Below are positions 38,821 to 64,000 of a stretch of 64,000 bases of DNA, piece after piece. Both the position numbers and the translations under genes were made by a program. Position 1 is the first letter of the stretch, and each line of letters opens with the position of its first letter. Source of the stretch: Candidatus Bathyarchaeia archaeon (GTDB lineage Archaea; Thermoproteota; Bathyarchaeia; TCS64); contig JBEKDF010000005.1 of NCBI GenBank assembly GCA_050014495.1, positions 43,782-107,781 on the forward strand, written 5' to 3'. The notes below the pieces were generated by a model. That model was not told the origin of the DNA. It saw only the letters and a program-made list of their open reading frames with translations, and made no database searches.

Positions 38821-40122
38821 CGCGCGCGCTGGCTCGTCCCTAAAATATGCACACACCCAGCAGCCACCAAAACTTAAAGAACAAAATCACCAAACCGACG
38901 ACCCAAGTGACCACCAATCAGCCAAACGAGCACACGGCCAGCACAGCAACCCCCAGAAAACGGACGAACCCACGCAGACAAGCAGAACACACACTAGCCA
39001 CACCACGCAGACCCGAGACCAGCCCTCACACGTTAAAGAACGTTGGAGACAACGCCTTATCCGGCCTACCCAGATTCTCCGCCGCCTCCCTGTTCAACAC
39101 AAGGCACAGCACACTCAGCAACGCGTAGACACCCACGTTCACCAAGCCCCGAACCCTGTTCACCGTCAACCCATACTGGTTCTTCACGAAGGCGAACAGC
39201 GCCTCAACAGCAGGCCTCTTCCTGTACTCGGCCACCAGCTCCGCCGGACCATGAGTCCTGAACCACCTGTCCACCCGGAGCACATCCTCCCCACGCTGGT
39301 TAGCCGTGTACGGGATCACCGTCCGCTCCGCCAGGCCCCTGACCCTACGGCTGCTGTACTGGCTGTCCCCGATCAGGCACCTGATCCTGGCATCGGCCCA
39401 ACCCAGCACCGCCCTCGTCCTATCCACAAGCCACGGCGCGTGCCTCTTCTCGTTCTCGTTCGCCGGAGCCATCACCGCGGCCAGCGGCAGGATACGCCTC
39501 GGCTCCACCGAAGTGTGAAGCTTGTACCCGAGACCGTAGCTCCTCCCGTTCCTGCCTACACGCGCATCCGGGTCCGAGAGACCAATCTGGTTGTCTGCTG
39601 GGTTTCTGATGCTCCAAGCCTTAAGGAAGCTGGCGTCGAGGACCACATCCACCTCTGTGACTCCGCTTCTCCTGAGGAGCATTATGACCTTCTCCTCGAT
39701 GATTAGCCTCAGCGTCTCTGCTCCGACTCTGTGGGTGAAGCGGCTGATGACTGACCTCGGGTAGCCGCCCTCGTCAGTCTCTATTAGGCAGAGCCGTCTA
39801 ATGCGCTGGTCTATGTCGAGGATCCTGGTGAGCTCCCGTAGGCTGCGGATTCCCTTCAATCGCATTATGAGGAGGGCTCTGAGGATGCCGAGTGGGTTCC
39901 TCGGTGGTCTTCCGGGTCCGGTTGTGTGGTAGCAGCCGAGTAGCTGCTTCTGGGCAATGCTTAAGTCGACGTTTCTAAAGAGTGTTTCAAGGGTCTCGTG
40001 TTCATCTTGTCCTAAGTGAACTCACCTCCTAGGGTTGGACAGACCATTTGGGGACGAGACCCCAACTGTTAAGATAAGCTTATTCTAGCCTGGATGAATT
40101 TCGGGACAGGCCAGCGCGCGCA
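38821..40122 (-). mobile_element. IS5/IS1182-like insertion sequence with (CG)n-extended inverted ends
   Basis: Left GCGCGCGCTGGCTCGTCCCTAAAAT versus reverse complement of right GCGCGCGCTGGCCTGTCCCGAAATT, enclosing one DDE transposase. Confidence 0.85.
39026..40015 (-). CDS. DDE transposase; frame is open above ATG 39865 to about 40015
   Basis: GRPPRNPLGILRALL (upstream extension), VLDAS, GYKLH, GDSQY, YRKRPAVE; AGGAGGTGA 6 nt before an in-frame TTA at 40015. Confidence 0.85.
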   Translation of the reverse strand, partial: LGQDEHETLETLFRNVDLSIAQKQLLGCYHTTGPGRPPRNPLGILRALLIMRLKGIRSLRELTRILDIDQRIRRLCLIETDEGGYPRSVISRFTHRVGAETLRLIIEEKVIMLLRRSGVTEVDVVLDASFLKAWSIRNPADNQIGLSDPDARVGRNGRSYGLGYKLHTSVEPRRILPLAAVMAPANENEKRHAPWLVDRTRAVLGWADARIRCLIGDSQYSSRRVRGLAERTVIPYTANQRGEDVLRVDRWFRTHGPAELVAEYRKRPAVEALFAFVKNQYGLTVNRVRGLVNVGVYALLSVLCLVLNREAAENLGRPDKALSPTFFNV

Positions 40123-40290
40123 TATATAAACTGAAGCGATCCACACTTTCGACTATAATCACTATATGAATTAACCATTTGATTCAATTCATCAATTTGG
40201 CAGCGGGAGCCAGCCTGCTATTACTAGTTCTTCGCGTACACCGAGTTATCAGCTGCCATTGACAACTATAAAGGGGGATAATGGTTCTCC

Positions 40291-40309
40291 TTTAATAACA
40301 GTTATTAAA
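40291..40309. promoter_or_regulatory. Perfect palindrome upstream of the integrase (putative operator)
   Basis: TTTAATAAC-A-GTTATTAAA. Confidence 0.45.
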
Positions 40310-40333
40310 TCCATAATGGGATAATTTATTAGC

Positions 40334-41599
40334 TTGCAAAGTCTCCTTAATCCTATGGCAAAAAGAGAATACAAGTCTATTTCTCAACATCTGGGGCAAT
40401 TTTCAAGCCCCAGAACCAAAATGACGTACCTCTCTGGGATTGGTGGCTTTTTCCGATTCATCAACCCCGATGTGAAGGACTTGGATGCCTACTCTATTTC
40501 TTACTTGAAGTCACATTCTCAGAGCCAAATCGAGTCTGACATAGTGAAGTTTCGAGACTCGATGTTGACCAGAGTAGCAAAGACCAGAACAGGGTACTTG
40601 AAATCGACTCTGGGATTCTTCGATGCGAATGATGTAACTTTCAAACGGAACTGGAAAAACAACATTATCGGTAAAGATACCACGGCTGTTTCTGAAGAAA
40701 GTATACCCACACAACAGGAACTTGAGAGGATTCTAAACTTTATGCCGCTAATTGGCAAGGCAATAACCCTTTTTCTTTGCAGCTCCGGTGTGCGTGTAGG
40801 TGAACTACTCCAACTCAAAGAATCCAATATTGACCTCACGAAAAACCCAGTAATGGTAACTCTACCAGCCTCCATTACTAAGACCAAGAAAAAACGAGTG
40901 ACATTCATCTCGATGGAAGCAAAGAAGATGCTTCAGGAGTGGTTGGAATACAAACCAAAGTGGCTGGAAACAACATCGACCAAAAGCCCCACACCCTTTG
41001 ACACGACCCGTATATTCCCATTAACCGACAACGGATACCGAGAGCTTTGGGATCGTGCTGTTGAGAAAGCCAAGTTAGCGGAGAAAGATCAGACAACAAA
41101 CCGACTTCAACGCAGAATTCACGCACTGCGGAAATTCTTCAGGACTTACGGCAAGTGGCAACAACCAGACATAGCGGAAGCCCTGATGGGTCATTTGGGT
41201 GGCATAGAAGAAATCTATACTAGATTCACAGAGAACCAGCTTAGAGAAGCCTACCTTACGGCGGAACCAAATTTGACCATTGTGGGTTCAGCGCCGAATC
41301 TGAAGGAGTTAGAGGCAAAGGTTGAGGCTAGGTATCAGGGTGTGGACAAGTTAATTGCTGATCTGTCAATCAAGAACCAAAGATTGGAAAATATTATTCA
41401 GAAAAGGGACACAGAGTACAAAGAAATGATGGAAATCGCATTGAAACCATACTTGGAAACTTTTTCAACACTTAAAGATAGGGTAGATGCACAAGAGTTG
41501 GAAATTGACAATATGAGAAAGGCAGGGGAACTTCGGGATCAAGAAGAGGTATTGAAAATAATACCAGCGGAACTAAAAATTAAAAAAGATGAAGTGTAA
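40334..41599 (+). CDS. Tyrosine recombinase/integrase with C-terminal coiled coil
   Basis: SSGVRVGEL (R), TKTKK (K), HALRKFF (HxxR), LMGH, IY (Y). Confidence 0.9.
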   Translation: MQSLLNPMAKREYKSISQHLGQFSSPRTKMTYLSGIGGFFRFINPDVKDLDAYSISYLKSHSQSQIESDIVKFRDSMLTRVAKTRTGYLKSTLGFFDANDVTFKRNWKNNIIGKDTTAVSEESIPTQQELERILNFMPLIGKAITLFLCSSGVRVGELLQLKESNIDLTKNPVMVTLPASITKTKKKRVTFISMEAKKMLQEWLEYKPKWLETTSTKSPTPFDTTRIFPLTDNGYRELWDRAVEKAKLAEKDQTTNRLQRRIHALRKFFRTYGKWQQPDIAEALMGHLGGIEEIYTRFTENQLREAYLTAEPNLTIVGSAPNLKELEAKVEARYQGVDKLIADLSIKNQRLENIIQKRDTEYKEMMEIALKPYLETFSTLKDRVDAQELEIDNMRKAGELRDQEEVLKIIPAELKIKKDEV

Positions 41600-41657
41600 G
41601 ATGATTCTGATTATGGGTTTCTTTTCTCCTAGTTGAAACGTCTGCTCATTGGTGTTG

Positions 41658-41879
41658 TCAGTGGGTCGGTGAGTGTAGTTTGTCATATTTCGTGCGCGGC
41701 TCCTCCTGCACCTTGATCTTCGGATAGGCCCTCTCAATCTCCCTGACCTTCTCCGTGAAGGCTGCCTTGCAAAACCTGCTAACCTCATCGTGGCTAAAGC
41801 CAGCCATGCACGCGCGCATTATTTCGCGTTGTATTCTAAAGAAACCGCTAAAAAAATTAATCCCTTTTTTCATTTTCAT
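41658..41879 (-). CDS. Small hypothetical protein convergent on the integrase
   Basis: 73-aa ORF with AT-rich upstream region; no recognised family. Confidence 0.35.
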   Translation of the reverse strand: MKMKKGINFFSGFFRIQREIMRACMAGFSHDEVSRFCKAAFTEKVREIERAYPKIKVQEEPRTKYDKLHSPTH

Positions 41880-41897
41880 AGTGGATAAGACGGGCCA

Positions 41898-41923
41898 GAC
41901 TTATACCTATACGGGTATAAGTC
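41898..41923. repeat. 10-bp inverted arms with 6-bp spacer (att/dif-like site or operator)
   Basis: GACTTATACC-TATACG-GGTATAAGTC. Confidence 0.6.
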
Positions 41924-42146
41924 CAAATAATACGTTAATCGTATACGCTCTAACTATCAAATAAATCTATCGAAACAACTGATCAAGTGATTCGACGTTT
42001 AACTTCTTAGCATTTTGGTCCAGAAGAATTAGTTGTTGGGCCCGAAGGGACCTAACCTATTTAGGTTAAGAACCTATTTCATTCAGGGTTCGTGTCGCTT
42101 GCGCAGCACTAGCTTTTGATACTATGCGCACTGAGCAGACTATTTG

Positions 42147-43421
42147 CTAAGAGACGTTCAAAACCAATAAGCCACGGATAGCGAGGTTGCGTGCGAGATC
42201 AAGCGCCCCTTTCTCAAGCCCCTGAACCTTATTCGCTGGCAGCATTACGTTTGTGAGATAACCAAGCTGGGGGGAACCAATCCTAACGATGTCCCCCTCC
42301 TCATGAGTAAACTCCGCACCAGTATCGTCTTTCAGTGGAACCGTCATCGTACCCAGGAACACTGCGACTCCGTCATTGTGTTCCCGCTCCTCATCCATCG
42401 CAGCAGCGACAATATCCTCTGGCTTACGGCTTATCTTACCCATCTTGTTCGATCCCTCGAACTTTAAAGAGCCGTCGACCCTCCACACCTCCAACCTCAC
42501 TTTGGTATCCAGTAGGGAATCAAGGCTAAACCCCTCATCGAAGACCCGGATGAAAGGCCCGACAGCCGTGCTCCCCTTCTTGACTTTCGCTCGATGAAGG
42601 AGGAGAGAAGACTTTCCCTCCTTCCCACGATCGTTAACATCGTTGCCATTGGTAGCGCCAATTATTCTGCCCTTTGAGTTGGCGATGAGCACTATCTCCG
42701 GCTCCGGATTTACCCAAGGTGACACATCTGAACTGTACCCAGCCTGAGCACCGTGCCCCACTGAAGTCGCTGGCGAAGCCTTCGAGAATATCTCGCCCTC
42801 CTCCCCGAGCCCGACCTGCGGATAAATAGTAGACATGCCGAGTTCTTTCATGCGTCTTAGGATTTCCAAAGCTACTTTTGAGCCTGGCTGAATCTTAGAG
42901 AAATCTGCATCACCCACGATCTCCTCAACTTCGCCACGGATCTTTTTTCGAACCTCGTTCAACTTATTCTGATCAAGTCCTCCATCGGAGTCCCTTGGAA
43001 CCACCTTCATAACGGCCTCCTCCACCATGCGCTCCACCATAGACTCGACGAAGGTCACTCCAGCCGCCTCGATTTCCTGAAAGTCTAAAGGCGACAGCAG
43101 GTATGGCTGGTCAGCGCCTCGGAGGGAGGAGTTGGCGATGATCTCGGACGCCTTACCAATTTTTTTACCCCTTAAAGCAGCGATGCGGACTGCCTTTGCT
43201 GGACTCTCCAACTCAAACAAGTCTCTTGTCGTGGCAAATATGTGTGAAACATCAAGAAGATCGCCGTTAGGGTCGACGATTACGACGGATGGACCTATGT
43301 TTGGCAGCATCACTCTACCGACCAATGAGGCTTGTCTCCAGTCCGCTGGGAGAGTCCTCTCGAGAGTCAACTCGCTCATCGGGACCAAATGGATAGCTTT
43401 TGTCTTCAGGGTTCCAGACAT
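42147..43421 (-). CDS. Fumarylacetoacetate-hydrolase-family protein, XylX/KdxD-like
   Basis: LLSP.D.Q...AAGVTF..S..ER..EE, EIFSK, NPEPE, GNDVN.R..EG.S.LLL..AK, FLGTM. Confidence 0.8.
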   Translation of the reverse strand: MSGTLKTKAIHLVPMSELTLERTLPADWRQASLVGRVMLPNIGPSVVIVDPNGDLLDVSHIFATTRDLFELESPAKAVRIAALRGKKIGKASEIIANSSLRGADQPYLLSPLDFQEIEAAGVTFVESMVERMVEEAVMKVVPRDSDGGLDQNKLNEVRKKIRGEVEEIVGDADFSKIQPGSKVALEILRRMKELGMSTIYPQVGLGEEGEIFSKASPATSVGHGAQAGYSSDVSPWVNPEPEIVLIANSKGRIIGATNGNDVNDRGKEGKSSLLLHRAKVKKGSTAVGPFIRVFDEGFSLDSLLDTKVRLEVWRVDGSLKFEGSNKMGKISRKPEDIVAAAMDEEREHNDGVAVFLGTMTVPLKDDTGAEFTHEEGDIVRIGSPQLGYLTNVMLPANKVQGLEKGALDLARNLAIRGLLVLNVS

Positions 43422-43493
43422 TATCTTAATCTTAACAATCGTAAGAGATAAGAAGTAATACTGAGCGCTGAGAAAATATTTGCGTTGCGCGCA

Positions 43494-43602
43494 CGCCTGA
43501 GATGCCGTGCCTCTCGATTAACTGCTGAGGGACGACGTACTTGTCCCTGAATGCACGCGTAGCAGGGTTCAGCTCATCGCCCGGATGTACGTCCACGCTC
43601 AT
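43494..43602 (-). pseudogene. 5' stub of a gene apparently cut at a TGCGCGCA tract
   Basis: ATG 16 nt after the previous stop; MSVDVHPGDELNPATRAFRDKYVVPQQLIERHGISG; GC-rich composition ends at 43486-43493. Confidence 0.4.
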
Positions 43603-43618
43603 GATGGCTGGTATCCCC

Positions 43619-44614
43619 TTATCCTCCCCTGCGATAGTCCGCGAAGTATTCTTCTACTGTGACCCTGCGGCTCGTAAGCCCCAGCCGGAAGGCTTCGCCG
43701 GTGAACATATCGATTTGCTCCCGGTTTCGATCGATCCCGAATGGGTGAAAGTTCTCACCCATGAGCGCTACTGTCTCCTCCAGCTCAGCCTCGAGCCACG
43801 GGGTGGCATAGGGGAAGCCCTCCTGTGCTGCGGTGAAGCAATCGTTCGCAGCAATGAACGCCTCAGTGAGGCTCTTAGCTATCCATGGGTTCGCCTCCCA
43901 CACCTCTCGTCGGAGAACGATCAGATGCTCGGGAGGAAAGGCACCGGTCTTACGGAAGTACCCCTGCTCGATTGGCCGGAAGTCCGGAAACATACGAACG
44001 ATGGGGCCGGTTTTGGGATGGAAAGCCGTTGGGTGCGACGGGCTGTAGATGGCCTCTAATTCGCCTGAGATAAGCATGTCAGATAAGGAGCGTCCGGGCG
44101 AAGGCGAGCTGAATCCTGGAGGCAGAGACTGGACCATCAGCTTCGTGGACACCGGCGTGTCGATATCTCCGATCCACCACTGGATGCTGGTCGGGTCAAG
44201 TCCCAAGTATCGGAGGAAGTGGCGGTACCATATGGATCCGGTCGCGCTGTGGCTATACATACCAATCCGCTTCCCGGCCAAATCTTCAGGGTGCCGGATT
44301 GGACCGCCCTGACGAACATAAAGGTCACGCGCCCCAAAGTCCCGTAGCACAAATACTGGCAGGCCAACATAGTTGTGGTCACCCTTGTCGATACGGTAGA
44401 GATACTGTGCCATCGACCACTCGCCGCCCTGCACATTCGGATCCTGCACAGCGCGTCTGAGCATCTCCGCACGGGCTGGCCACGAGCCGCAGCTACCGAG
44501 AATCATGGTGAGCGCAATTCCTCGTGGCTTCACCATACCGGTCGCCAGCGGCATGACGCGAGCATAGTCAGCGCAGGTTAGGGTGATTGGGACCATCTTG
44601 TTAACAGTGGACAT
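43619..44614 (-). CDS. 4,5-dihydroxyphthalate decarboxylase-like (periplasmic-binding-protein fold)
   Basis: ITLTCADY.R..PL..G.V, LPVF..R.F, I..P.DL.GKRIG, YF..TG.FP..H. Confidence 0.78.
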   Translation of the reverse strand: MSTVNKMVPITLTCADYARVMPLATGMVKPRGIALTMILGSCGSWPARAEMLRRAVQDPNVQGGEWSMAQYLYRIDKGDHNYVGLPVFVLRDFGARDLYVRQGGPIRHPEDLAGKRIGMYSHSATGSIWYRHFLRYLGLDPTSIQWWIGDIDTPVSTKLMVQSLPPGFSSPSPGRSLSDMLISGELEAIYSPSHPTAFHPKTGPIVRMFPDFRPIEQGYFRKTGAFPPEHLIVLRREVWEANPWIAKSLTEAFIAANDCFTAAQEGFPYATPWLEAELEETVALMGENFHPFGIDRNREQIDMFTGEAFRLGLTSRRVTVEEYFADYRRGG

Positions 44615-44870
44615 ACCGATCTCCTCTTATTATCGATGCACGCGCGCTTATGAATGAAGATGATATCCACTTGTTTCTATTGAGAGTGGGGTCACATGGC
44701 ATTTTTAGGTCTCAGATTATTCCTAAATTGGAAAGACAAGATAATTAAATTCGATTTAGGTCATAGCAAATAATTCCTAGGGGTAACCATTCTCATAAAA
44801 TCCGCGTGCATCGGTGATCAAAGCATAAGATGAAAATTGCTTAATCGTGAAAAGTCGCTACTTGTGCAAA

Positions 44871-45185: not shown

Positions 45186-45197
45186 GAATTTTCACCA

Positions 45198-45863: not shown

Positions 45864-45972
45864 AATACATCATTTTAAGCATTTTAGGCGGCTAATTTAA
45901 ATCAGATTAAACTAATGTGCTTTCGCAACTTGGCCTTTATTCCGTCAATACGAGCGAATTCGTAGCCATTCC

Positions 45973-46905: not shown

Positions 46906-47209
46906 GAGTTTTCCTAAATGTACCTAGCTTTTAAAATTATTGCCTAAATAGTCAGCGATCAGATCGACAATCTATTTTTATTTATAATATCAAAAAAAAC
47001 CATTATTGATGTGAGTTCTTAACACTATTATGAAAAAAGGATCTGATTTTCCAATGCCTCATAAAAATAAATAATAGATTAATGGAAAAATATGATAAAT
47101 AGTTGATGAAAAACTTATTTAGTTATTATAATTATTTAATAACGGATAGGACGCGCACCTCTTCATACCAGCTAGTGTCGTACGCCAAGTTATCGCCCTA
47201 TCCAAATAA

Positions 47210-49340: not shown

Positions 49341-49724
49341 ATGAGATCATACATTAAAATAATGGGTCCACCGTTGGGGAAAGCACTCAAAGAATTAGAA
49401 AAAATTGCGATAGACATGCCGCAAGTCTGCATAATGGATGAAGCCATCATGCATGGTATTCCCAAAGAACTGAGCGAAGATGTCGGTGAGTCGGTTAAGT
49501 ACTCAGAGCACGTAGGAAACTTATTCGCTGAAAGAACAGGGGTCGTCGTCGAAACCGAGAGATGTAGTAAAATAATTAGCAAATCCGACAGAGTCCTTGG
49601 AGAATATGACTTTTTTTTTGAATGGTTCAAGAAACCAAGAATAAACGATCTGAATGACCTCATCCAAAAAGTCGACGACATCCTTGCCCCGCTCGGAGTC
49701 CACTACACGATTACTACAAAATGA
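49341..49724 (+). CDS. Hypothetical protein (decayed paralog at 52189-52376)
   Basis: Clean 127-aa ORF whose 3' half recurs downstream with codon-like divergence. Confidence 0.75.
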   Translation: MRSYIKIMGPPLGKALKELEKIAIDMPQVCIMDEAIMHGIPKELSEDVGESVKYSEHVGNLFAERTGVVVETERCSKIISKSDRVLGEYDFFFEWFKKPRINDLNDLIQKVDDILAPLGVHYTITTK

Positions 49725-49795
49725 AGACTCAACAATCACACATCTTCGAGCAAGTGAAAAACTGCTCAATAACAGTGGATCTATTAAACCCCTCA

Positions 49796-50115
49796 TTACT
49801 TCTTGGGGATGGCTTCAACAATTTTCTCAATCACAGATTCCCTGAAACGAGGACGACTCTCACTATTACCATTCTCATTACCCTGCCGAACCACAACAAG
49901 ATCTAGGCTCGGAATAACGTAGCAATCATTCGCGTTATTACCCTGAATCATAGAAGCGTCATTCGGCACGTTCCTCAGATTATCAAGGATCCAATAGGCG
50001 TAGCCATAGTTACTGGGGAATTCACCATTATCTCTCACAAATCTATTAGTTGCCTTTTCAACCAGGTCTTCGGGATAAGCTGTCGCTCCCCCCATCGACC
50101 ATTATTCAGCCACAG
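49796..50115 (-). pseudogene. 3' fragment of the serine hydrolase paralog
   Basis: Matches 52424-52748 (NYGYA.WILD.LRNVP.D..M.QGNNANDC); 1-nt frameshift near 50073; homology stops at TGCGCGCAC 50117. Confidence 0.88.
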
Positions 50116-50160
50116 ATGCGCGCACTGAGCGACGACTAAAGAGCTGTGCCTCTTTATGTT

Positions 50161-51201
50161 TTAGTATTGGAGGTTCATATTAAACAAGTTCCGAAGTGGT
50201 AATCCTTTCAAATATAGACTTAGATTTTCGCAGAAAAGTTTCACCAGTTCAACGTTCTCGCTGTCCACATTGCTGGCTGAGTGGGGGCTCAAAAGAACCT
50301 GGGGCAATTCCCATAGGGGGCTATCGTGGGGGAGGGGTTCCGTCGTTTGGACATCGAGGGCAGCTCCTAAGAGTTTGCCCGAATTCAGAGCTCTAATTAG
50401 AGCCGCCTCGTCCACTATGGCTCCCCTAGCAATGTTGATCAATACGGCGCTTGATTTCATGGCAGCTAGCTCTTCTTCTCTTATCAGACCCGTCGTCTCT
50501 AATGTTTGAGGGATGCAAAGTACTACGAAGTCGGCCTGACTGAGCATGGGCTTGAGGTCTGTCCATGGATATAGGCGTTCAACTCCCAAGGAGGCTGAGT
50601 TAACCCCCTCAGTATTGCGTTTTGTTCCAATTACATGCATGCCAAAGCAATTTGCAAGCTTAGCTACCTCTTGGCCTATTTTTCCCAAGCTGATAATAGC
50701 AACTGTCTTCCCCTTTAATGTGGTTCCAGCATATCTCCCCCAGTGCCTGCTCCCTTTCTCCTTGATCATACGTGGAGCATCCTTCACGAACCAGAGCATG
50801 GCCATGATGGAGAACTCTGCCAAGGGTGTAGCATGTATTCCACTAGCGGTCGTAATAGGAATATTCAGATCGGAGAAGCCTTTTAGCTTGACCCATTGGC
50901 CAACTCCGGCACTAGGAGATTGCACCCATTTAAGGCAGGGCGCAGTTTTGAAAAGCTCTTTCACATCCGTGTGTAACACGTATCCGAATAGAACTTCGGT
51001 CTGGGACAGCAATTCTAGCCAGCGTTTCTTTTGTGTAGGAGAATGTTGAATTTGGGTCCCATGCTGATCGCAAAGATATCTAGGCCTACCAAGGAGATCC
51101 GGTTCATACAATACTTCAATACGAGGATCCACTTCCTCTATTTTTTTGATCAAATTCGTTTCTATAGTAAAAGTGATCAGAACCTTTACCTTCTCTGACA
51201 T
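50161..51201 (-). CDS. D-2-hydroxyacid dehydrogenase
   Basis: SAGV, LAEF, SLGKIG, INIARG, LDV...EPL, SPHSA. Confidence 0.9.
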   Translation of the reverse strand: MSEKVKVLITFTIETNLIKKIEEVDPRIEVLYEPDLLGRPRYLCDQHGTQIQHSPTQKKRWLELLSQTEVLFGYVLHTDVKELFKTAPCLKWVQSPSAGVGQWVKLKGFSDLNIPITTASGIHATPLAEFSIMAMLWFVKDAPRMIKEKGSRHWGRYAGTTLKGKTVAIISLGKIGQEVAKLANCFGMHVIGTKRNTEGVNSASLGVERLYPWTDLKPMLSQADFVVLCIPQTLETTGLIREEELAAMKSSAVLINIARGAIVDEAALIRALNSGKLLGAALDVQTTEPLPHDSPLWELPQVLLSPHSASNVDSENVELVKLFCENLSLYLKGLPLRNLFNMNLQY

Positions 51202-51356: not shown

Positions 51357-52124
51357 CTATTTCTTAAAGTATAGAACCTTCATCCCAATATCGCCGATCG
51401 TGTCCTTCAGCATGGTATCATAGTAGACCTTCTCGGGTAGATCATAGGACACGTAGACCGCCTTTGTGAGCTTATCCCTCCAGTTAGCAACAGCAGCCTC
51501 CCAGCCATTAGCCCTCAGGTAATCAGCGAGCTGTATGGGGCGAATCTCTGACCGGTGATACCATGCGCGTTTTGGAGGGCTAGGAAACTCTAGGCCTCTG
51601 AGAAGTTCCCAACCATCTCATCGTCGCTAGCAAACTTTAACCTCAACTCCTCAGATAACTTGGTCTCGTCACTCAGTGTGAGTCTGCTTGGTTTAAGCCT
51701 CTTACCCTCAAGGGCGCTCACACTGAGTGAATTCACTGCGACATTGTACTGGTAGAGCTCCATCGCCAGGCACTGGGTTAAGCCCTCTAACCCATACTTT
51801 GATGGGCAATACGCTATCTCAGCGACGAAGCCTGTCGTCGCAGACCCAGAGGAGATGTTTACGATGCTACCCTTGCCCTGCTTCTTCATCATGGGCAGAA
51901 ACAACTTAACACAAATGGTGCACGAAGGTTGATCGAGATCGACCTATCCCACTCCTCGATAGTGCGCGCGCGAATCCTTCAAAGCCTTCAACTCCGCCAG
52001 GGAACGAGACGCGGCTACGACGTCGGCACTCTCAGAAGCAAGTCCCATAGACAAATACTTACCATAACCACGTCCAGCACCCATCACATGGACCACTCTG
52101 CCAAAGTCTACCCATTAAAGCCAC
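51357..52124 (-). pseudogene. Decayed SDR paralog of 45973-46905
   Basis: End-to-end similarity; TGG>TAG at 51590, small frameshifts near 51541 and 51910, about 170 bp deletion at GTGCGCGCGCG 51962-51972. Confidence 0.9.
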
Positions 52125-52188
52125 GACACTCTAAAATGTCACCAGCTTTTAAAATGATTACTGAAAAAAAATATGAGTCACTCGCGCA

Positions 52189-52376
52189 TGGGCATTGCTG
52201 TTGAAACCGAGAGGTGTAATAAAAACATCAGCAAATACGGGAGGGAACTCGGGGAGTATAACTTCTAACTTGAATGGTTTAAGAAGCCAACACTGGATTA
52301 ACTGAATAACCTCATCAAGAAGGTTGATGAAACACTCGCGCTCCTAGGTGTTCTCTACACGCTCACAACGAAGTAA
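52189..52376 (+). pseudogene. 3' fragment paralog of 49341-49724
   Basis: VETERC..ISK, EWFKKP, LIKKVD..LA.LGV.YT.TTK* with stops and a frameshift; begins right after CGCGCA 52183-52188. Confidence 0.85.
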
Positions 52377-52423
52377 AAACCTCAGTTGTGCGCACTCATT
52401 CATATGGCGCCATTTAACCTCCA

Positions 52424-53731
52424 TCATTTCTTCTTGGGGAAGGCCTCAACGATCTTCTCTATCACGGACTCCCTGAAGCGGGGTCTGCTCTCACTATTGC
52501 CATTCTCGTTGCCCTGACGAACCACGATGAGATCCAGGCTCGGAATGATGTAGCAATCGTTCGCGTTGTTGCCTTGAGTCATAAATGCGTCCTTCGGAAC
52601 GTTCCTCAAATCGTCGAGGATCCAGAACGCGTACCCATAGTTGCTGGGAGTTTCACCGTTGTCTCGTATGAACCTCTTAGACGCCTTCCTTATCCACTCC
52701 TCGGGGACAAGCTGTCGACCCCCCCAACGACCTTTATTCAGCCACAGGTAACCCATCCTAGCATAGTCTCGGGCCGTGCATGGGAATGTGCTTGAAACAA
52801 TCGTGTTGTAACCATACTTACTGAAGCTTCTATCCGCTCCATACGCGTTACAACCCGTGCTCCCGCCCCTAAACCACCCCGGCTCATCTCCAAAGTTGAA
52901 CTTCTTATCGCTCCTATAGGGAACCTCCCTGAAATCATTATCCCGGATCCCCACGGGCATTCCAATGTGCTTCATTATGTGGTCATACGCATAAGGCCCA
53001 ACCTCCTTACCCGTCATGTTTCGTATTGCGAGAGCCAACAACTCTAACCCAAAGCTGCTGTAATTGAACCCCTGTCCCGGCTCGAACATCAACGTGTGAT
53101 GTGAGGGTATACCCTCAAAGTGCCACCAGCCAAAGCAATACTCATACATCTGGAAGGAGCCCGAGTAATCCGGATAGAAGTGGCGGGGAGTCGGGGCCAG
53201 CCAGGGCTCGTTTCCCTCATGCCCAGACGTCATGGAGAGGACGTTTTTCACCTTGATCTTCTGCTTCCTCACATCCGTGAGGGGCTGATCCCATATCTGT
53301 GGAATAAGCGAATCCTCGTGACTCTTTCCCACGAGCAGCGTGTCCAGGCTAACTCGGTCCTTATACTCCTCAAGAAACACCCCCACAGCCGAGCCGAAGA
53401 CCGACTTCGCGGAGGACTTCATGTCATTGCATGTGCGTGTGGTCCATGGCTGAGGCCCACCCTCCGTCCCAGTGACGTAGCTCTCTCCGATGATGTGCCC
53501 TTTGTAAATTATGACGAGGGCGCCACCAAACTTCTTGGTGTAGGTCTCCTCAGTATCGTGGAACTTGATTGCATTACTTAGTTTACCAGCATCTACCCCC
53601 AATGAACCAGGATCTCCAACGCGCCAACCCCCATCCTTTTCGGATGGCGGAAAATACTCTTCAGCTAAGGTACAACACCTGCAATAACAAACATCCTTTA
53701 GATAGAAAAAATGTACGCGTCGCGTCCACAA
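52424..53731 (-). CDS. Serine hydrolase, beta-lactamase/AmpC-like (true start probably near 53668)
   Basis: SSAK (SxxK), LSMTSG, PG.GFNYSS, TARDYARMG.L.L..G.W, YGY.FW. Confidence 0.88.
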   Translation of the reverse strand: MWTRRVHFFYLKDVCYCRCCTLAEEYFPPSEKDGGWRVGDPGSLGVDAGKLSNAIKFHDTEETYTKKFGGALVIIYKGHIIGESYVTGTEGGPQPWTTRTCNDMKSSAKSVFGSAVGVFLEEYKDRVSLDTLLVGKSHEDSLIPQIWDQPLTDVRKQKIKVKNVLSMTSGHEGNEPWLAPTPRHFYPDYSGSFQMYEYCFGWWHFEGIPSHHTLMFEPGQGFNYSSFGLELLALAIRNMTGKEVGPYAYDHIMKHIGMPVGIRDNDFREVPYRSDKKFNFGDEPGWFRGGSTGCNAYGADRSFSKYGYNTIVSSTFPCTARDYARMGYLWLNKGRWGGRQLVPEEWIRKASKRFIRDNGETPSNYGYAFWILDDLRNVPKDAFMTQGNNANDCYIIPSLDLIVVRQGNENGNSESRPRFRESVIEKIVEAFPKKK

Positions 53732-53763
53732 GCTAATTGGAGATCATCACAGACCTAGATTCT

Positions 53764-55110: not shown

Positions 55111-55445
55111 AATAAAACTTGTTCAAGCTAATAATTATCAATTATCAGACTATCTAGTACAAAACTAATCCCTGACCTGCACGGCGTGTGCTTTGCTTGT
55201 GCGTGTACCCTACGTCAATAAAATCAAGGCGTTCGGCAGGAATCGGTAGATACAATGTGATCCGCCTCTGCTTGGAACTCCAAGATATCTGAACAATCAG
55301 TATGGCGAACCCATCATTAGACTAAAAAACAAGAGAATAGGTTCAGGCATACGCGAATTATCATACAGCACAAGGACGAGTTCATATACGCCAGGGCAGC
55401 TTCCTCGAGGCTTGAATGAGGAGTATCCCAAAATTGTATATTATT

Positions 55446-56489: not shown

Positions 56490-56612
56490 ACATTTAAGTT
56501 CAATATCTCCTTTAAAATATTTATCTCATAGATTATTTCATAATACTAATTTATTACATCATTACGTAAAAAGTAGGCATAATTAAATGGAGATTTTTAT
56601 TGATGAGTTCAA

Positions 56613-57710: not shown

Positions 57711-58017
57711 TTCATTAAGTTTATCACAGAAATATATTTAAGGTTTTGGCGCGCATGAAGAGCCATTATTTGAGAATTGATGAAGACCACTTTTTATCTT
57801 GTCATAATAGTAATTATAATCATACACATCGGTAAATTATCAATCGGTTATTAAAGTAGTTAAGGTCCACAAGCTCTATTATGTCTTAGTACTCGAACTT
57901 GAATGGTGACCGTTTTTCTGTAATTCAAGAATTGAAATATCGCCTGAGTTTCTATATTTTTTACTTATAAAAAGAAAAACCTTATTTTTTATCAACACAA
58001 ATAATGTTGAAATTAAT

Positions 58018-59151
58018 ATGACCTTTGCTGAAAATAAAAATTCAAGTTATCAATTCATGTTGGGTAATCACGCGATTGTTGAAGGCGCAATAGCTGCTGG
58101 CTGCCGCTATTTCGCAGGTTACCCAATAACACCGGCGAGCGAAATCTCCGAGAGAATATCAGATCGATTACCCGAGGTAGGAGGCAAATTCATTCAGATG
58201 GAGGACGAACTGGGATCTATTTACTCAGTTATTGGTGCCTCCTTGGCAGGTGTAAAATCCATGACTGCTACAGCGAGCGCAGGATACGATTATATGCAGG
58301 AGGGAATTGAGTTCGCAGTGGCAACGGAGACACCTCTAGTCATAGTCGACGTGATGAGACTCAGAGGCGCAGAGCAAGCGACTCAAGCCGACATAATGCA
58401 GGTACGTTGGGCGGCAGCAGGAGATCATGAGATGATTGTGCTTGCCCCATCATCCGTACAAGAACTATTTGACTACACAATTGAGGCATTCAATCTCTCC
58501 GAGACTTATAGAAACCCCGTTGTTGTTCTCTCAGAGATGACCCTTAGTTTAATGAGGGAACGTGTGAAAATTCGGGACCCAAGTCAGATACGGATAGTAA
58601 ATAGGAAGCATCCTAAAGTCTCTCCTGAAGAGTTCATACCTTTCCTAGGGGAACCTGATGGAGTTCCTCCCATGGCTAAATTTGGTGAGGGATATAATGT
58701 CCTTTACACGATAAACCCTCATGATAAGCGAGGGATGATAACTGGGGACATGGAAGAATACGATCAACTGTATAAAAGAATAACTGGTAAGATCACACGA
58801 TCCATTAACGACATTGTGAAATACCAAACCTACTATCTGGACGATGCTGACATAGCTGTAATTGCATATGGTAGTGAATCAAGATCCGCCTTAGAAGCTG
58901 TGAGAAAGGCCAGAGAAGAGGGAATAAAAGCGGGTCTTCTTAAACTTGTGACTGTTTGGCCATTCCACGAAGCGCTGATTCGAAGCGTAGCTGAGCGAGT
59001 GAAAAAGATAGTCGTTCCAGAGATGAACCTGGGAAGATATGTTAATGAGATCGAGAGAGCTAGTGAATGTAAGACAAAAGTTCTCTCACTGCCCCTCAAC
59101 AAAGGCCGAATGCATACCTCAGGTGAAATTTTACATGGTATAAAGATGTGA
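58018..59151 (+). CDS. korA: 2-oxoacid:ferredoxin oxidoreductase alpha subunit
   Basis: GNHA, AGYPITP, QMEDE, PEMNLG. Confidence 0.88.
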   Translation: MTFAENKNSSYQFMLGNHAIVEGAIAAGCRYFAGYPITPASEISERISDRLPEVGGKFIQMEDELGSIYSVIGASLAGVKSMTATASAGYDYMQEGIEFAVATETPLVIVDVMRLRGAEQATQADIMQVRWAAAGDHEMIVLAPSSVQELFDYTIEAFNLSETYRNPVVVLSEMTLSLMRERVKIRDPSQIRIVNRKHPKVSPEEFIPFLGEPDGVPPMAKFGEGYNVLYTINPHDKRGMITGDMEEYDQLYKRITGKITRSINDIVKYQTYYLDDADIAVIAYGSESRSALEAVRKAREEGIKAGLLKLVTVWPFHEALIRSVAERVKKIVVPEMNLGRYVNEIERASECKTKVLSLPLNKGRMHTSGEILHGIKM

Positions 59152-59987
59152 TTAAAATGGATACACCTATTGGGCATCCAAATTTAAAGTATCTGAGAAA
59201 AGGCTCCTTACCACATATGTTTTGCCCTGGTTGTGCTTGCGGACAAATAATGAATAATTTTCTTTACGCAATAGATGATCTCGGTTTAGATCCTAATAAA
59301 ATAGTTACAATTGGGGGAGTCGGTTGTACAGCAAGAATCCCAGCCTACCTGAATATGGATACCATCCATGGTATCCACGGGAGGACCCTGGCTTTTGCGA
59401 CTGGTGTCAAGCTAGCGAACCCCCAACTGACGGTCGTGATTTTAACGGGTGATGGTGACGTTGCTGCAATTGGGGGCAACCATCTGATTCAGGCTGCACG
59501 AAGGAACCTAGATGTAACATTAATAGTAAATAATAATGGAAGCTATGCAATGACAGGTGGCCAAGTATCTCCTGTAACCCCATTTGGAGCTAGCACGACA
59601 ACCACAACTAGGGGAAACATAGAGACCCCATTTGATTTATGTAAGCTTGTGGAGGCTGCTGGAGGAACATACATTTCCAGGTGGACAACAGTGCATTCAG
59701 CCCAGTTAACCAATGCAATCAAGGAGGGTATACTGCATAGAGGATTTTCCTTCATAGAGGTGGTTGGACAGTGCCCTACGATATATGGCAGATACGTCCT
59801 CAAACTACGTGAGCCAGTTGACAACATAAAGTGGCTTAAAGAAAACTCAGTCACAAAGGCACAAGCTGAAAAGATGAAAACAGAGGAGCTAGAGGGGAAA
59901 GTAATTATCGGTAACTTTGTAAAAAAGAATTTGCCTACACTCAATGATAGATACGAAGCCTTGGAAAGCCGAGTGAAATCAGGTTGA
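59148..59987 (+). CDS. korB: 2-oxoacid:ferredoxin oxidoreductase beta subunit
   Basis: CPGC, GVGC, HGR, GDGD..IGGNH..NN, MTGGQ, QCP. Confidence 0.9.
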   Translation: MIKMDTPIGHPNLKYLRKGSLPHMFCPGCACGQIMNNFLYAIDDLGLDPNKIVTIGGVGCTARIPAYLNMDTIHGIHGRTLAFATGVKLANPQLTVVILTGDGDVAAIGGNHLIQAARRNLDVTLIVNNNGSYAMTGGQVSPVTPFGASTTTTTRGNIETPFDLCKLVEAAGGTYISRWTTVHSAQLTNAIKEGILHRGFSFIEVVGQCPTIYGRYVLKLREPVDNIKWLKENSVTKAQAEKMKTEELEGKVIIGNFVKKNLPTLNDRYEALESRVKSG

Positions 59988-60553
59988 TGAATATGGTTAA
60001 GCGATGGGAAGTTAGATTCGGAGGGTTCGGGGGACAGGGAATTGTACTCTCCTCCGTTGTTCTAGGGCTTGCCGCCGTCTACGATAACAAATGTGCCGCG
60101 CAACGAGCCTCCTATGGTTCGGAAGCCAGAGGGGGAAAATGTAAATCCGAAGTAATAATATCGAATGAAGAAATCGATTACCCCCTGATCGATAACCTCA
60201 CGACACTGATAATCATGTCTCAACAGGCATACGATAGCTACATAAACGAACTCAAACCAGGGGGACTATTAATCATTGATCCAGACATGGTAAAAGGCTT
60301 TGAAACACGAACAGACATACGAATTCTCCGAGTGCCTGCAGCTAGCCTAGCCGATAAGTTAGGGAACAGAATTATTGCTAATATGATTATGCTGGGAGCC
60401 TTACAAGCTGAAACTGAAATAGTCTCTCTTAACTCCCTTAATAAAAGTGTAAAGGAATATGTTGCAAAAAGATTCGTTGACTTGAATTTAAAGGCAATAG
60501 ATGAGGGACGAAAAATGGTTGAGCTAAAAAATACTAGCATAATTAGCAGGTGA
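59984..60553 (+). CDS. korC: 2-oxoacid:ferredoxin oxidoreductase gamma subunit
   Basis: GFGGQG, YGSEARGG, NMIMLGA. Confidence 0.9.
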   Translation: MMNMVKRWEVRFGGFGGQGIVLSSVVLGLAAVYDNKCAAQRASYGSEARGGKCKSEVIISNEEIDYPLIDNLTTLIIMSQQAYDSYINELKPGGLLIIDPDMVKGFETRTDIRILRVPAASLADKLGNRIIANMIMLGALQAETEIVSLNSLNKSVKEYVAKRFVDLNLKAIDEGRKMVELKNTSIISR

Positions 60554-60556
60554 TTC

Positions 60557-61729
60557 ATGCTGAGATTATTCGAGTTCCAAGCTAAGAGAATATTTGCAGA
60601 GAATGGAATTAAAGTACCGAGAGGAATAGTGGTTCACTCATCTCTTGAAGTACGGGATATTTTAGAAAATTTTGGAGCACCAGTGATAATAAAAGCCCAA
60701 GTACTTGTGGGAGGAAGAGGACGAGCAGGCGGAATTAAATCTCCTTCAGATCATTATGAGGCTCGTCAAATCATAGATCAATTTATTGAGGGCTCACTGA
60801 AAAATGAGAAAATTTATTCAGTGCTCATCGAGGAGAAACTATCCATAGAAAAAGAATACTTTGCTGGAGCACTGATAGATAATCAAGTTAAAGCACCTAT
60901 TATTATTGCTTCATCAAAAGGTGGAGTCGATATAGAATCAATAGCTATAGAAAATCCCAAAGAAATCATTATGGAAAAAATAAATGATGAAATTGGTTTT
61001 CCAGATTATCTAGCTAGGCGAATGGCTAAATCTATAGGTCTTAAGGGAAGAGCTATGCTCTCGTTTGCCAATATACTTCAATCCATATATGAGATACTAA
61101 AGAATTATGATGCCACTTTAGTAGAAGTTAATCCTCTAATATTAACGACCGAAGGAACATTCATTGCCGTTGACGCCAAAATGACACTTGATGATAATGC
61201 ATCATTTAGACACAATGAACTTTTTACAAGCCTCAAATTAGAGAGATATGAATTAATTCAAGAGCCAAAATCGAGAAAAGCACTTGCTGAAAAAGCTGAA
61301 ATACCGACATACATCGAACTCGATGGAAACATGGGAATCATTGCTGATGGTGCAGGAACAGGTATGTTAACTCTAGATTTAATTAATGATTATGGAGGTA
61401 AAATTGAGTCGTACTGCGAGCTTGGAGGCAGAGCCACACCTAAATTAATAGAGGAAGCTATGAATATTGTTTTGTCTAATGAAAAAGTCAAAGTACTCCT
61501 GATAAATTTAATAGGAGGTCTTAATAGGATGGATGAAATGGCACAAGGTATCAACTCCTATATGGTGAATAATGGTAAAGAGGTAATTAAGGATAGGAGA
61601 ATAATTGTACGGATGTCCGGTACTCTAGAGGAGGAAGGCAGAAATATACTCACATCCATAGGTGTATCATCCTTCGATAACATTTATGACGCAATAGAAA
61701 AAGCAATTGAATCTTCTAGGAGACATTAA
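60557..61729 (+). CDS. sucC: Succinyl-CoA-ligase-like beta subunit (ATP-grasp)
   Basis: LFEFQAK, KAQV..GGRGRAGG, GGVDIE, EVNPL, DAK..DDNA.FR, GAG. Confidence 0.87.
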   Translation: MLRLFEFQAKRIFAENGIKVPRGIVVHSSLEVRDILENFGAPVIIKAQVLVGGRGRAGGIKSPSDHYEARQIIDQFIEGSLKNEKIYSVLIEEKLSIEKEYFAGALIDNQVKAPIIIASSKGGVDIESIAIENPKEIIMEKINDEIGFPDYLARRMAKSIGLKGRAMLSFANILQSIYEILKNYDATLVEVNPLILTTEGTFIAVDAKMTLDDNASFRHNELFTSLKLERYELIQEPKSRKALAEKAEIPTYIELDGNMGIIADGAGTGMLTLDLINDYGGKIESYCELGGRATPKLIEEAMNIVLSNEKVKVLLINLIGGLNRMDEMAQGINSYMVNNGKEVIKDRRIIVRMSGTLEEEGRNILTSIGVSSFDNIYDAIEKAIESSRRH

Positions 61730-61730
61730 A

Positions 61731-62591
61731 ATGTGTATACTGGTGGATAAAGAAACACGAGTCATTATTCAGGGAATAACTGGAACAGTGGGATATTTTC
61801 AATCGAAGGTTATGTTGGACTACGGCACAAACATCGTTGCAGGCGTAACACCAGGTAAGGGAGGAGAGTATGTCCACGGAATTCCAGTTTATGACTTGGT
61901 TGTGGATGCCGTGGCTGAACATGGGGGAGATGTGGTTCTGAGTTTTGTTCCTGGTGCCTTCTCGGCTGACGCGGCTATGGAATCCATACAGGCTGGCTCA
62001 AAGCTAGTAATCATGACAGCGGAGGCAGTGCCTATTCACGACACAATGCGGGTCATGAATCTCGCAGCAAGAAAAGGAGCTATGCTCATCGGTCCAGATA
62101 CAGCAGGAGTAATATCCCCGGGGAGAAGCAAGGCGGGCGTTCATCCCAACAAATTATTTAGAGAGGGTAATATTGGAGTTGTCTCGAAGAGTGGCGCTCT
62201 ATCATATGAAGTCTCAAAAACTTTAACGGAGGCGGGATTGGGTCAGTCGACTGTTGTGGGTATTGGCGGCGGACCTATTTGGAGCTTCACTCAGATCGAT
62301 GCTTTAAGGCTCTTCGAGGAAGATAATGAGACAGAAGCAATCGTTTTATTGGGAGAGATAGGCGGCACTATGGAAGAGGAAGCTGCTGATTACATTAAAA
62401 AGAATATTACTAAACCTGTAGTTTCCCTGATTGTTGGAAGACACGCACCAAGAGGAGAAAGAATGGGTCATGCGGGTGCTATAGTACAGCATGGGAAGGG
62501 GTTGGCTGAAGATAAGATAAGTGCATTACGTTCAGCTGGTGTCCAGGTGGTAAAGGGGCCACGCGATATTCCCCTCGCATTAAAAGGTTAG
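61731..62591 (+). CDS. sucD: Succinyl-CoA-ligase-like alpha subunit
   Basis: QGITG, GVTPGKGG, SKSG.L.YE, GEIGG, MGHAGA phospho-His. Confidence 0.9.
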   Translation: MCILVDKETRVIIQGITGTVGYFQSKVMLDYGTNIVAGVTPGKGGEYVHGIPVYDLVVDAVAEHGGDVVLSFVPGAFSADAAMESIQAGSKLVIMTAEAVPIHDTMRVMNLAARKGAMLIGPDTAGVISPGRSKAGVHPNKLFREGNIGVVSKSGALSYEVSKTLTEAGLGQSTVVGIGGGPIWSFTQIDALRLFEEDNETEAIVLLGEIGGTMEEEAADYIKKNITKPVVSLIVGRHAPRGERMGHAGAIVQHGKGLAEDKISALRSAGVQVVKGPRDIPLALKG

Positions 62592-62601
62592 AAGGGATCA
62601 A

Positions 62602-62823
62602 ATGACCATAAAAGTAGAGAAGATACATGTCGATGAAAAGCTGTGCAAGGGTTGCTATTACTGTATAGATGTGTGCCCTAAGAAAGTTTTAACCAAATCA
62701 ACCAAGATGGGTCCAAAAGGCTATATCGTGGTGGAAATCGAAAAACCAGAAGAATGCATCGAGTGTAGGTTATGTGAAAGAATATGTCCTGACTTCGCTA
62801 TCTCAGTACAAATAAAGAAATAA
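62602..62823 (+). CDS. korD: 2[4Fe-4S] ferredoxin-like OFOR delta subunit
   Basis: CKGCYYCIDVCP and CIECRLCERICPDFAI. Confidence 0.88.
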   Translation: MTIKVEKIHVDEKLCKGCYYCIDVCPKKVLTKSTKMGPKGYIVVEIEKPEECIECRLCERICPDFAISVQIKK

Positions 62824-62906
62824 AAAAAAGCACGACACTCAACGATCTTCATATTAAACCTAGATCCCTAACATCTCAACGTGCATACGGATATTTTGTT
62901 CTTATT

Positions 62907-63827
62907 TTATCCCAATTTAGGTTTCCATGCCCCAGGCTTTCCAGGAATCACTGTTCCCTTTGCTCGGTTCTTAGACTGTTTTGCTTCTGGATAATACCTA
63001 TTAATCGTCTCAACAACTCTCATAGCTTGATAAAACTTGTCATCCAGAGTGATACCTGAGCCAAATAAACTCACCTTAAAGTAGACAGGCGCAGCCACTC
63101 TCACGATATCCGGGGTATCAAGAGTTCGAGCCAAATTTGTGCCCCAATACGCATGAACATCCATAGGTTGATCAGTGACGGCCCTCATGGCTGCAAGCAT
63201 GGGTAGAGTCATATCTCTAATTGGGTTTAGGCTATCGTTAGGACCTAACTCGGCTTTAGATATCCAGAACTTTAGCGCTAACGGATTGGACACGGAGATA
63301 CATGCTGAAACCTTGAAGGTTGTCTCCGGCGGAATCAATTTATCACGTCTTAGCTGAGCAATGATAGTCATCATGCCCTCGTCATAAACCAAGAATCCCC
63401 TGCAGCCAAACTCTATGCATCTCATCATGTCGGCTACATTCCTTACGAGCATATCCATTCCTCTCGACTTCCCCTCCACGAGAGCTTTAACGGCCATCTG
63501 GTGACTCACATCAACTTGGTGCTCGCCAGACCCGGGGGACATTACCAGCTCTGCACCTCTTTCTCTGCACAATTCAACTTTTTTTATAATTTCCTCATCC
63601 GTGTCGAACATTGCTCCACGGGTATCAGTTATCTTGTTTCCCTCGAAATTGTACTTGTCGCAGAGTTCGAACACTCTCTCATACTCTTTTACTGTCGTTG
63701 GGAGGAGCTCTGTTCTATAATGGGAGCCATCTGGAAACCTCACCTTTGAGGAGGGAATGCTATACAGGTCACGACCCGGCACATTAAGTTTCTTTTCTAT
63801 ATAATTACTGATTTCGTCTATTGACAT
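62907..63827 (-). CDS. U32-peptidase-like TIM-barrel protein of unknown function
   Basis: PG.DL...P.S..RFPDG.HYR.E, G.RGFLVYDEG, FKVS, AAPVYFK resemble proteins commonly labelled U32 family. Confidence 0.55.
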   Translation of the reverse strand: MSIDEISNYIEKKLNVPGRDLYSIPSSKVRFPDGSHYRTELLPTTVKEYERVFELCDKYNFEGNKITDTRGAMFDTDEEIIKKVELCRERGAELVMSPGSGEHQVDVSHQMAVKALVEGKSRGMDMLVRNVADMMRCIEFGCRGFLVYDEGMMTIIAQLRRDKLIPPETTFKVSACISVSNPLALKFWISKAELGPNDSLNPIRDMTLPMLAAMRAVTDQPMDVHAYWGTNLARTLDTPDIVRVAAPVYFKVSLFGSGITLDDKFYQAMRVVETINRYYPEAKQSKNRAKGTVIPGKPGAWKPKLG

Positions 63828-63877
63828 TTCTGGTCAAACTTCAGATTACTTTGAAATGTTTTAAATTTATGCACTTT

Positions 63878-64000
63878 TGCGCGCGCTGCCTTGTCCCGTT
63901 ATTGGTGTAAAATGGTTTTAAATACACATTCCCGTTTTCAGCCAATAATAGAGCGTATTGACGAGAAGGATCATGAACCCGCTGATAGACCCATAAAGAC
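63878..64000. mobile_element. Probable end of a second related IS, cut by the window edge
   Basis: GCGCGCGCTGCCTTGTCCCG matches both ends of the 38.8-40.1 kb IS. Confidence 0.55.

Follow-up and report, generated by a model that had tools for sequence, protein, structure and literature searches.

Short alternating (CG)n tracts as a junction signature in Bathyarchaeia genomes

What do the short alternating runs of C and G found in the spacers of a Bathyarchaeia genome record? The question is raised by a stretch of 64,000 nucleotides (G000:C5:43782-107781; hereafter the window, i.e., the whole stretch of DNA that was analyzed) from the host genome G000, an archaeal metagenome assembly of 3.1 Mb in 92 contigs with 7.5% contamination. 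From ~38.8 kb onward, the window consists of an accessory island with catabolic genes, gene fragments, an insertion sequence (IS), and an integrase. A first-pass annotation of the window had listed (CG)n tracts in its spacers and proposed that some process leaves or writes such tracts where DNA has been deleted or inserted. All 12 motifs that were spelled out in that annotation are in place, and alternating runs are present at the other eight places that it listed.

The annotation also proposed a comparison with a Markov background, and in the intergenic DNA of the host genome, as defined by de novo gene calls (3143 genes), alternating runs are far above that expectation. The word GCGCGCGC occurs 854 times over both strands (427 sites), compared with 4.0, 34, and 189 expected under Markov models of orders 1, 2, and 3, respectively. 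Likewise, GCGCGC occurs 2246 times, compared with 92 expected under a Markov model. The weaker motifs of the annotation are 2.4- to 54-fold enriched relative to a Markov null built with the tracts removed; those that are individually uncertain are TGCGCA (169 vs. 50), TGCGTGT (62 vs. 25), and ACGTGCAT (22 vs. 9). Other dinucleotide repeats show no enrichment in the spacers of this genome. A second abundant intergenic repeat, represented by the words AGGATAAG, CAGGTGGA, and GTGGAAGT, belongs to another multicopy element, the ends of which are not tied to (CG)n.

The tracts are limited in length. Pure runs of 6, 7, 8, 9, and 10 bp number 481, 186, 192, 144, and 111, respectively, in the host genome, and the counts fall steeply past the ten-mers, with five runs of 11 bp, four of 12 bp, and three longer ones. 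When one transition is allowed, 162 ten-mers and 36 eleven-mers are found, compared with one of each in the null. A similar limit (98 ten-mers vs. 17 eleven-mers) is seen in G107, a tract-bearing genome assembled as a single contig of 1.98 Mb. The tracts also appear to age. Variants at position 4 of GCGCGCGC in the host genome are mostly C>T (135, compared with 27 C>A and six C>G), in support of the earlier suggestion that tracts decay by transition. C5 cytosine methyltransferases (PF00145) were found in none of the five genomes searched, so deamination-type ageing would need no methylation. At one locus shared by two genomes (G000:C24:1435 and L025:2887), the flanks are identical and the tracts are one G>A apart, which suggests that mutation may be faster in tracts than in the DNA around them.

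Among the 251 Bathyarchaeia genomes compared, GCGCGCGCGC was found in 99. With a threshold of at least 20 ten-mers (both phases counted), 27 of these genomes, from seven families, are tract-rich, and G107 is the richest of all. Tracts are also present in G021, another single-contig genome (2.3 Mb). A search for paired tracts in viral contigs gave 62 matches, of which 58 have a GC content of 55% or more; these were taken as chance.

Within the host genome, the tracts coincide with the ends of homology. In self-alignments, 28 of 172 ends at 95–100% identity, 32 of 479 at 85–95%, and 55 of 1534 at 75–85% fall on a tract, compared with 0.2–0.4% of shifted controls; the top identity class includes many IS ends. 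Junctions were characterized further with 69 ends chosen for a tract-free partner, of which six were dropped (the homologous side was an IS end, the partner tract had decayed, or no run was in range). At 47 of the remaining 63 non-IS junction ends, the upstream match is clean and the run starts directly at the break. The run and the intact allele have 0, 1, 2, 3, and 4 bases in common at 19, 18, 8, 1, and 1 of these 47 junctions, respectively. Microhomology of at least 1 nt (C/G) is therefore present at 28 junctions (60%, compared with 23% expected; p = 8e-8). Of the 17 junction ends in G107 whose partner is tract-free, five have an unmatched A before the run.

Three breakpoints in the window can be compared with intact copies, all of which are tract-free at these places, as had been reported. 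The accompanying claim that homology stops exactly at the tract holds for two of the three. At 49548–50115, on the reverse strand, a truncated duplicate of 52200–52747 (a small gene and the 3' end of a serine-hydrolase gene) ends in AT-GCGCGC-AC (50116–50125), which is found neither in the window paralogue nor in the G005 orthologue; here homology stops 2 nt before GCGCGC, and contigs from metagenome runs X7 and X5 bridge the site. In a reverse-strand short-chain dehydrogenase gene broken by an internal deletion of 167–169 bp, the 3' part (51357–51963) is separated from the 5' part with its upstream region, a tract-bounded segment (51975–52159), by GCGCGCGCG (51964–51972). The flanks of this filler are colinear on the intact paralogue, and the lost part is seedless. 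Homology stops exactly on the left and, as judged by the G005 orthologue, within ~2 nt on the right. In contrast, the aged tract at 52183–52190 lies near, not exactly at, the junction of two paralogous segments, and homology ends only approximately there, ~10–20 nt on either side. A further aged tract at 41807–41818 also marks a breakpoint, with homology to a tract-free copy on contig C61 beginning at 41818; an X9 contig bridges it. For the gene at 50161–51201, the metagenomes hold one identical copy, and all other relatives are at 83% identity or less, with no close strain among them.

The strongest cases are those in which both flanks can be placed. Eight two-sided deletions, with flanks in order on one intact gene or IS, have lost 44, 112, 121, 169, 317, 416, 455, and 472 bp, respectively. 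In all eight, an alternating run of 8–17 bp replaces the lost DNA, and in none does the lost DNA hold a (CG)n seed of 5 bp or more. Six of the eight come from loci of the host genome and of G005–G016, at 70–90% identity. In G107, two-sided protein matches are available for five of 359 tracts. Two of these are insertions into genes, one of 9 nt and one of 7 nt, where nothing is lost, nothing is duplicated, and the site is seedless; the other three are a same-length replacement, an ordinary substitution, and an unalignable case. Finally, a freshwater sister strain in run X19 lacks the 64 bp at window positions 55352–55415 and has TACGCGCGC instead (one contig, depth 2.8). In these cases, the tract consists of new sequence, which supports the earlier proposal of a process that writes (CG)n where DNA was deleted or inserted. 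Taken together, these findings indicate that the tracts are a real junction signature that extends across the class. Fragments of 70–250 bp with tracts at both ends also recur, as expected if end joining captures loose DNA.

The bases just outside the runs differ between genomes. In the host genome, T precedes the run in 62% of cases and AT in 159 of 574. In G107, A precedes G in 78% and TA in 277 of 585, and A or TA is also found outside the run in five other genomes (G128, G136, G192, G206, and G272 among the loci compared). TA on the left and TA on the right co-occur at the level of chance (54 vs. ~50 of 235). The preferred phase of the ten-mer likewise differs between species, and no flank is conserved beyond 2 nt. 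In G107, TAGCTAGCTA stands immediately 5' of GCGC several times (TAGCTA in 12 of 580), a hint that this genome may also have a slippage product of another kind, (TAGC)n.

Two IS families are closely associated with the tracts. The IS at 38830–40113, on the reverse strand, has a DDE_Tnp_1 + DUF772 transposase (39026–39865), inverted ends TGGCTYGTCCC, and a GCGCGC target. On its left, a tract (38821–38829) forms the boundary between core and island, with relatives' matches to the upstream gene stopping just before it; on its right lies a second tract (40114–40121), which an X7 contig spans. The IS itself may include the C/G at its two outer edges (38829 and 40114). This family includes miniature inverted-repeat transposable elements (MITEs) of 380–500 bp, and all 80 transposase relatives that were kept come from Bathyarchaeia records. 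Almost every end of this IS borders on GCGCG(C), as is the case in a second family, which has CTAAACA-type ends and likewise targets GCGCGC. Among 21 complete copies, the flanking runs are mostly 5–10 bp each, with a sum of at most 18 and no outer duplication, and the lengths of the left and right tracts are not anticorrelated (rho 0.32, p 0.16). For related IS loci in other Bathyarchaeia, an end pair is detectable at 33 of 43, mostly as 6+6, and each of these 33 borders on GCGC(G), with no more than single mismatches. The target is probably GCGCGC with a CGCG duplication (4 bp being favored and 6–8 bp possible). An allele with an empty site for the window IS had no match in metagenome contigs. 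Next to the right-hand tract, a tyrosine recombinase gene on the forward strand (40334–41599), one of 13 matches in the host genome, also lies between tracts. The signature does not require it. Elsewhere, at G000:C10:50368, a tract stands directly before a duplicated tRNA-like 3' end with its partner ~5 kb off, resembling the edge of an integrated element.

This association invites the explanation, raised by the annotation for the IS, that mobile elements left the tracts as footprints. In that case, an IS would enter GCGCGC, duplicate CGCG, and excise to leave 10 bp (6+4), at which later deletions would start; alternatively, an unrecognized element or recombinase with (CG)n ends would be responsible. 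The arithmetic of 6+4 fits the 10-bp limit, two IS families and all end-paired related loci abut the motif, the insertion in the X19 strain described below has a flanking repeat, the patchy distribution within the class is what a mobile agent might produce, and an IS may be lost after leaving its scars. However, the ends of the window family were not found in 18 of the 27 tract-rich genomes, and G240 has 20 IS ends and a single ten-mer. No homologue of either transposase was found in the 82% of G107 that was read (1.62 of 1.98 Mb), and that part showed no repeat element with (CG)n at its ends, other transposase families having been left out of the class-wide search. DDE_Tnp_1 was not found in G015, G079, G054, or G013. 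All eight deleted segments and both insertion sites are seedless, footprints on targets of 7–10 bp would yield many runs of 11–14 bp (such runs are rare), and the single-contig G021 yielded no tyrosine recombinase. In addition, target duplications do not flank the free tracts of the host genome (0 of 459, compared with 0.55 expected; 8 of 644, compared with 8.1), and a test for P-nucleotides (inverted flanks) was negative in this genome. The window IS thus uses the tracts, which neither require it nor follow from its presence. As footprints of this particular family the tracts are rejected, given the missing duplications in the host genome, the lack of an ancestral seed at the eight deletions and two insertions, and the decoupling of IS and tract abundance across the 251 genomes; an origin from mobile elements in the broader sense appears unlikely.

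The tracts may instead pre-exist as fragile sites or resection stops, prone to form Z-DNA or hairpins, with the partner side contributing the run. One-sided junctions are compatible with this, and in the window allele, the DNA missing from the X19 strain begins with CGCG. This is very unlikely given the two-sided cases, in which a single gene without an intervening tract supplied both flanks; moreover, fragility does not account for how hundreds of tracts arose or for their 10-bp limit. Still less probable is a selected spacer motif such as a terminator, a regulator, or a site for a chromatin protein. In tandem spacers, 33 of 112 tracts lie within ~30 nt after a stop codon (17.1 expected), and convergent spacers are enriched, as such a role would have it. 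However, tracts are also found inside broken genes and IS fragments, lack conserved flanks or spacing, decay by transitions, and differ between near-identical copies; the intragenic cases largely refute this explanation. An artefact of assembly or library preparation, with chimeras joined via a linker, might be suspected from a metagenome assembly with this level of contamination. Mutational ageing and lineage-specific flanks speak against it, and so do contigs from four other runs (X5, X7, X9, and X10, none flagged as a possible source of the assembly), which span 15 places: 40114, 41805, 42125, 43486, 44637, 44803, 47151, 50117, 51243/51259, 51962, 52183, 52387, 53711, 55198, and 57749. These bridging contigs answer the annotation's concern about chimeric junctions, and, because the signature is also seen in G021 and G107, each a single contig, the chance of an artefact is close to nil.

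The tracts are likely to be filler written by end joining with self-complementary (GC)n, the better fitting of the two candidates put forward by the annotation. The filler is palindromic, limited to near 10 bp, and often in register with the last one or two flanking bases. We propose that an enzyme would extend each broken end with (GC)n, the self-pairing of which would make any two ends cohesive. Ends annealed over a few G:C pairs would then be filled and ligated. Such a route would serve equally for deletions, for breaks without loss, and for captured fragments, and runs of 6–10 bp would result from a fixed short tail if the overlap is at least two bases. ISs that target GCGCGC could subsequently use the scars as safe landing sites. 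It is conceivable, although we lean against it, that a dedicated "universal sticky end" system exists, in which a polymerase or nucleotidyltransferase writes ATGCGC.../TAGCGC... (~10 bp once joined) on any end without a genomic template, thereby enabling ligation of foreign DNA, mosaicism of accessory regions, and use of the scars as targets by several IS families.

Several observations weigh against end-joining filler. Only 11 two-sided cases are available, and most partners are paralogues at 70–90% identity. Two cases are ambiguous, namely the same-length replacement in G107 and a 3-nt in-frame gain in the host genome. Being chosen for tract-free partners, the 69 junction ends cannot show how often partners carry tracts. 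The X19 strain has an 18-nt insertion holding CGCGCGC after position 55298 (site 55293–55299) that is flanked on both sides by the 6-bp repeat AACAAT and resembles a target duplication. Flanking repeats are slightly in excess in G107 (7 vs. 2.4 ± 1.8 and 7 vs. 3.2 ± 1.5 of 365), and the genomes of the host's genus that are richest in ISs (G000, G016, and G011) are also the richest in tracts. No tested gene tracks the signature. The papers on archaeal primases discussed below report G tails in vitro and mostly indels of 1–2 bp or single-C insertions in vivo, rather than (GC)n of 6–10 bp (PMC3333859; PMC12019639).

For the enzyme, the host genome offers a complete operon encoding a LigD-type polymerase, Ku, and a ligase-phosphoesterase (G000:C3:64206-67463; L071), followed by a DUF72-like gene (labeled by eye). 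This Pol-Ku-Lig/PE operon is common in the host's family and was not found in the other 16 genomes searched. Searches for Ku found none in G021 or G022, and the tract-poor G001 and G010 do have it; the LigD-type polymerase was not found in any of the four genomes of genus g5 and is present in 16 of 30 from the mostly tract-poor g8. Non-homologous end joining (NHEJ) by Ku/LigD is rejected as the writer, given that neither protein tracks the tracts across genomes. PolX (PF14791) is present in 18 of the 27 tract-rich genomes and also in the tract-free G051–G053 and G027–G030; similarly, strong matches to the damage-inducible polymerase PolB2 occur in 14 of the 27 and also in the tract-free G001, G051–G053, G108, and G187. 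Both were set aside. No reverse transcriptase (PF00078, RVT_1) was found in five genomes, three of them tract-rich, a search that a very divergent enzyme could escape. Integron-like cassettes moved by a tyrosine recombinase were also rejected, as G021 has no PF00589 match and att arms are not conserved (flanks of at most 2 nt). G021 has no Phage_integrase match at all and therefore no recognizable XerA.

The catalytic primase subunit PriS was found in the host genome, G107, G021, and all of 20 further genomes, with PriL adjacent in G107. It is present equally in tract-poor genomes and is for that reason non-discriminating. If the tracts stem from end joining, PriSL is the best lead for the enzyme, as a candidate that we consider somewhat doubtful. 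The host genome has two additional, divergent PriS-like genes (G000:C20:26047-27366, L317; C53:7058-7864, L318). One encodes 439 aa with a C-terminal extension and lies among core genes; the other is on an integrase-bearing contig. Elsewhere these genes have only weak matches, probably to canonical PriS, and they were dropped as candidates. A comparison of genes shared by the host genome and G107 gave 768 reciprocal matches and 430 after filters; nothing stood out in the 150 of these 430 that were scanned against Pfam. This leaves either an enzyme common to all the genomes, the output of which depends on the lineage, or an accessory gene outside the tested set.

How does the signature compare with known systems? 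NHEJ by Ku/LigD and the addition of N-nucleotides by TdT or Pol mu leave filler that is short or random. Filler at joints is shared with these systems, and the host genome has both the Pol-Ku-Lig/PE operon and PolX; however, neither follows the tracts across genomes. IS5/IS1182-like elements favor palindromic targets, and the window IS and its MITEs, labeled as IS5/IS1182-like from Pfam DDE_Tnp_1 + DUF772, sit in GCGCGC. Telomerase adds telomeric repeats at break junctions. For the defence system DRT3, proteins are described as templating dinucleotide repeats, with free (GT/AC)n as the product (PMC13314766; PMC13174585). Telomerase and DRT3, as described, resemble the signature in having a defined repeat written by an enzyme without a genomic template; unlike it, the DRT3 product is free rather than junction filler, and RVT_1 was found in none of the five genomes searched.

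The closest parallel lies in the Sulfolobales. Sulfolobus PriSL is reported to add terminal nucleotides, anneal ends over 2–4 G:C pairs, and extend across them (PMC3333859), and PriSL is reported to promote break repair in vivo with C-biased insertions (PMC12019639). As presented in these two papers, primase end joining is archaeal, Ku-independent, and marked by added nucleotides that match the ends and by C/G-biased insertions. The short C/G microhomology at 28 of the 47 junctions is in line with such joining. In Haloferax volcanii, microhomology-mediated end joining likewise produces break deletions joined via short homology (PMC12281630). However, that homology is >2 and <50 nt, and insertions are unmentioned in the main text of the paper, whereas 0–2 nt plus new sequence are found here. 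A survey of Z-DNA (PMC12776410) leaves Bathyarchaeia unnamed in its main text. The signature works like end-joining filler and is a member of no tested family. It is apparently undescribed: no account of it was found in the open-licence literature of PubMed Central (PMC) and bioRxiv, nor was any description of sequence-defined filler at prokaryotic junctions.

These results bear on how broken DNA is rejoined in archaea without Ku. If the tracts are indeed such filler, each would be a datable record of a break, and rearrangements and DNA uptake could be counted and mapped from single genomes of an abundant uncultured class. An enzyme able to render any pair of ends cohesive would represent new biochemistry and possibly a cloning tool. 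The presence of tract-rich and tract-poor genomes inside single genera offers a direct path to the gene.

The position of the tracts relative to genes differs from what had been anticipated. The annotation had proposed that tracts upstream of promoters create cassettes of a gene plus its promoter. Per kb of spacers of 60–400 bp, however, tract density is highest in convergent spacers (1.86), compared with 0.94 in tandem and 0.77 in divergent ones, and in tandem spacers only six of 112 tracts lie within 40 nt of a start codon (22.8 expected), which argues against such cassettes. This depletion would be explained by selection on random junctions, with the survivors sparing genes and promoters. 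Tracts of at least 7 bp occur in 263 of 1141 accessory spacers and 14 of 106 core spacers. A comparison of synteny with G107 (0 of 11 vs. 8 of 64; 3 of 10 vs. 4 of 21) was uninformative.

The remaining tracts of the island are mostly aged. Those at 43486–43496, 44637–44647, and 47151–47158 separate modules, and another lies at 52387–52395. At 53711–53725 and 55198–55207, the gene order is unlike that of G005, and the tract at 57749–57757 is upstream of an M42 peptidase gene that is not at this place in G005. A weak, aged run is present at 62879–62886, and the tract at 63878–63886 flanks another IS end at the contig end. Two open reading frames of the island (42147–43421, 424 aa; 62907–63827, 306 aa) have no Pfam match at an E-value of 0.001. 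Core spacers also hold tracts, including an intact ten-mer at 1787–1796. At the aged tract at 25668–25677, G002, G008, G012, and G015 have 1–3 kb of extra DNA, and the gap in G011 and G009 is similar in size to that of the host genome. The aged tract at 35625–35634 lies in a region that is colinear in G008 and G012 and coincides with a synteny break in G015 and G016. The window also encodes TFIIB, ERCC4, and PolB, and a tRNA-Arg(CCG) at 23578–23653 is located immediately upstream of the arginyl-tRNA synthetase gene. The metagenome runs that contain the window come from peat, wetland, and freshwater.

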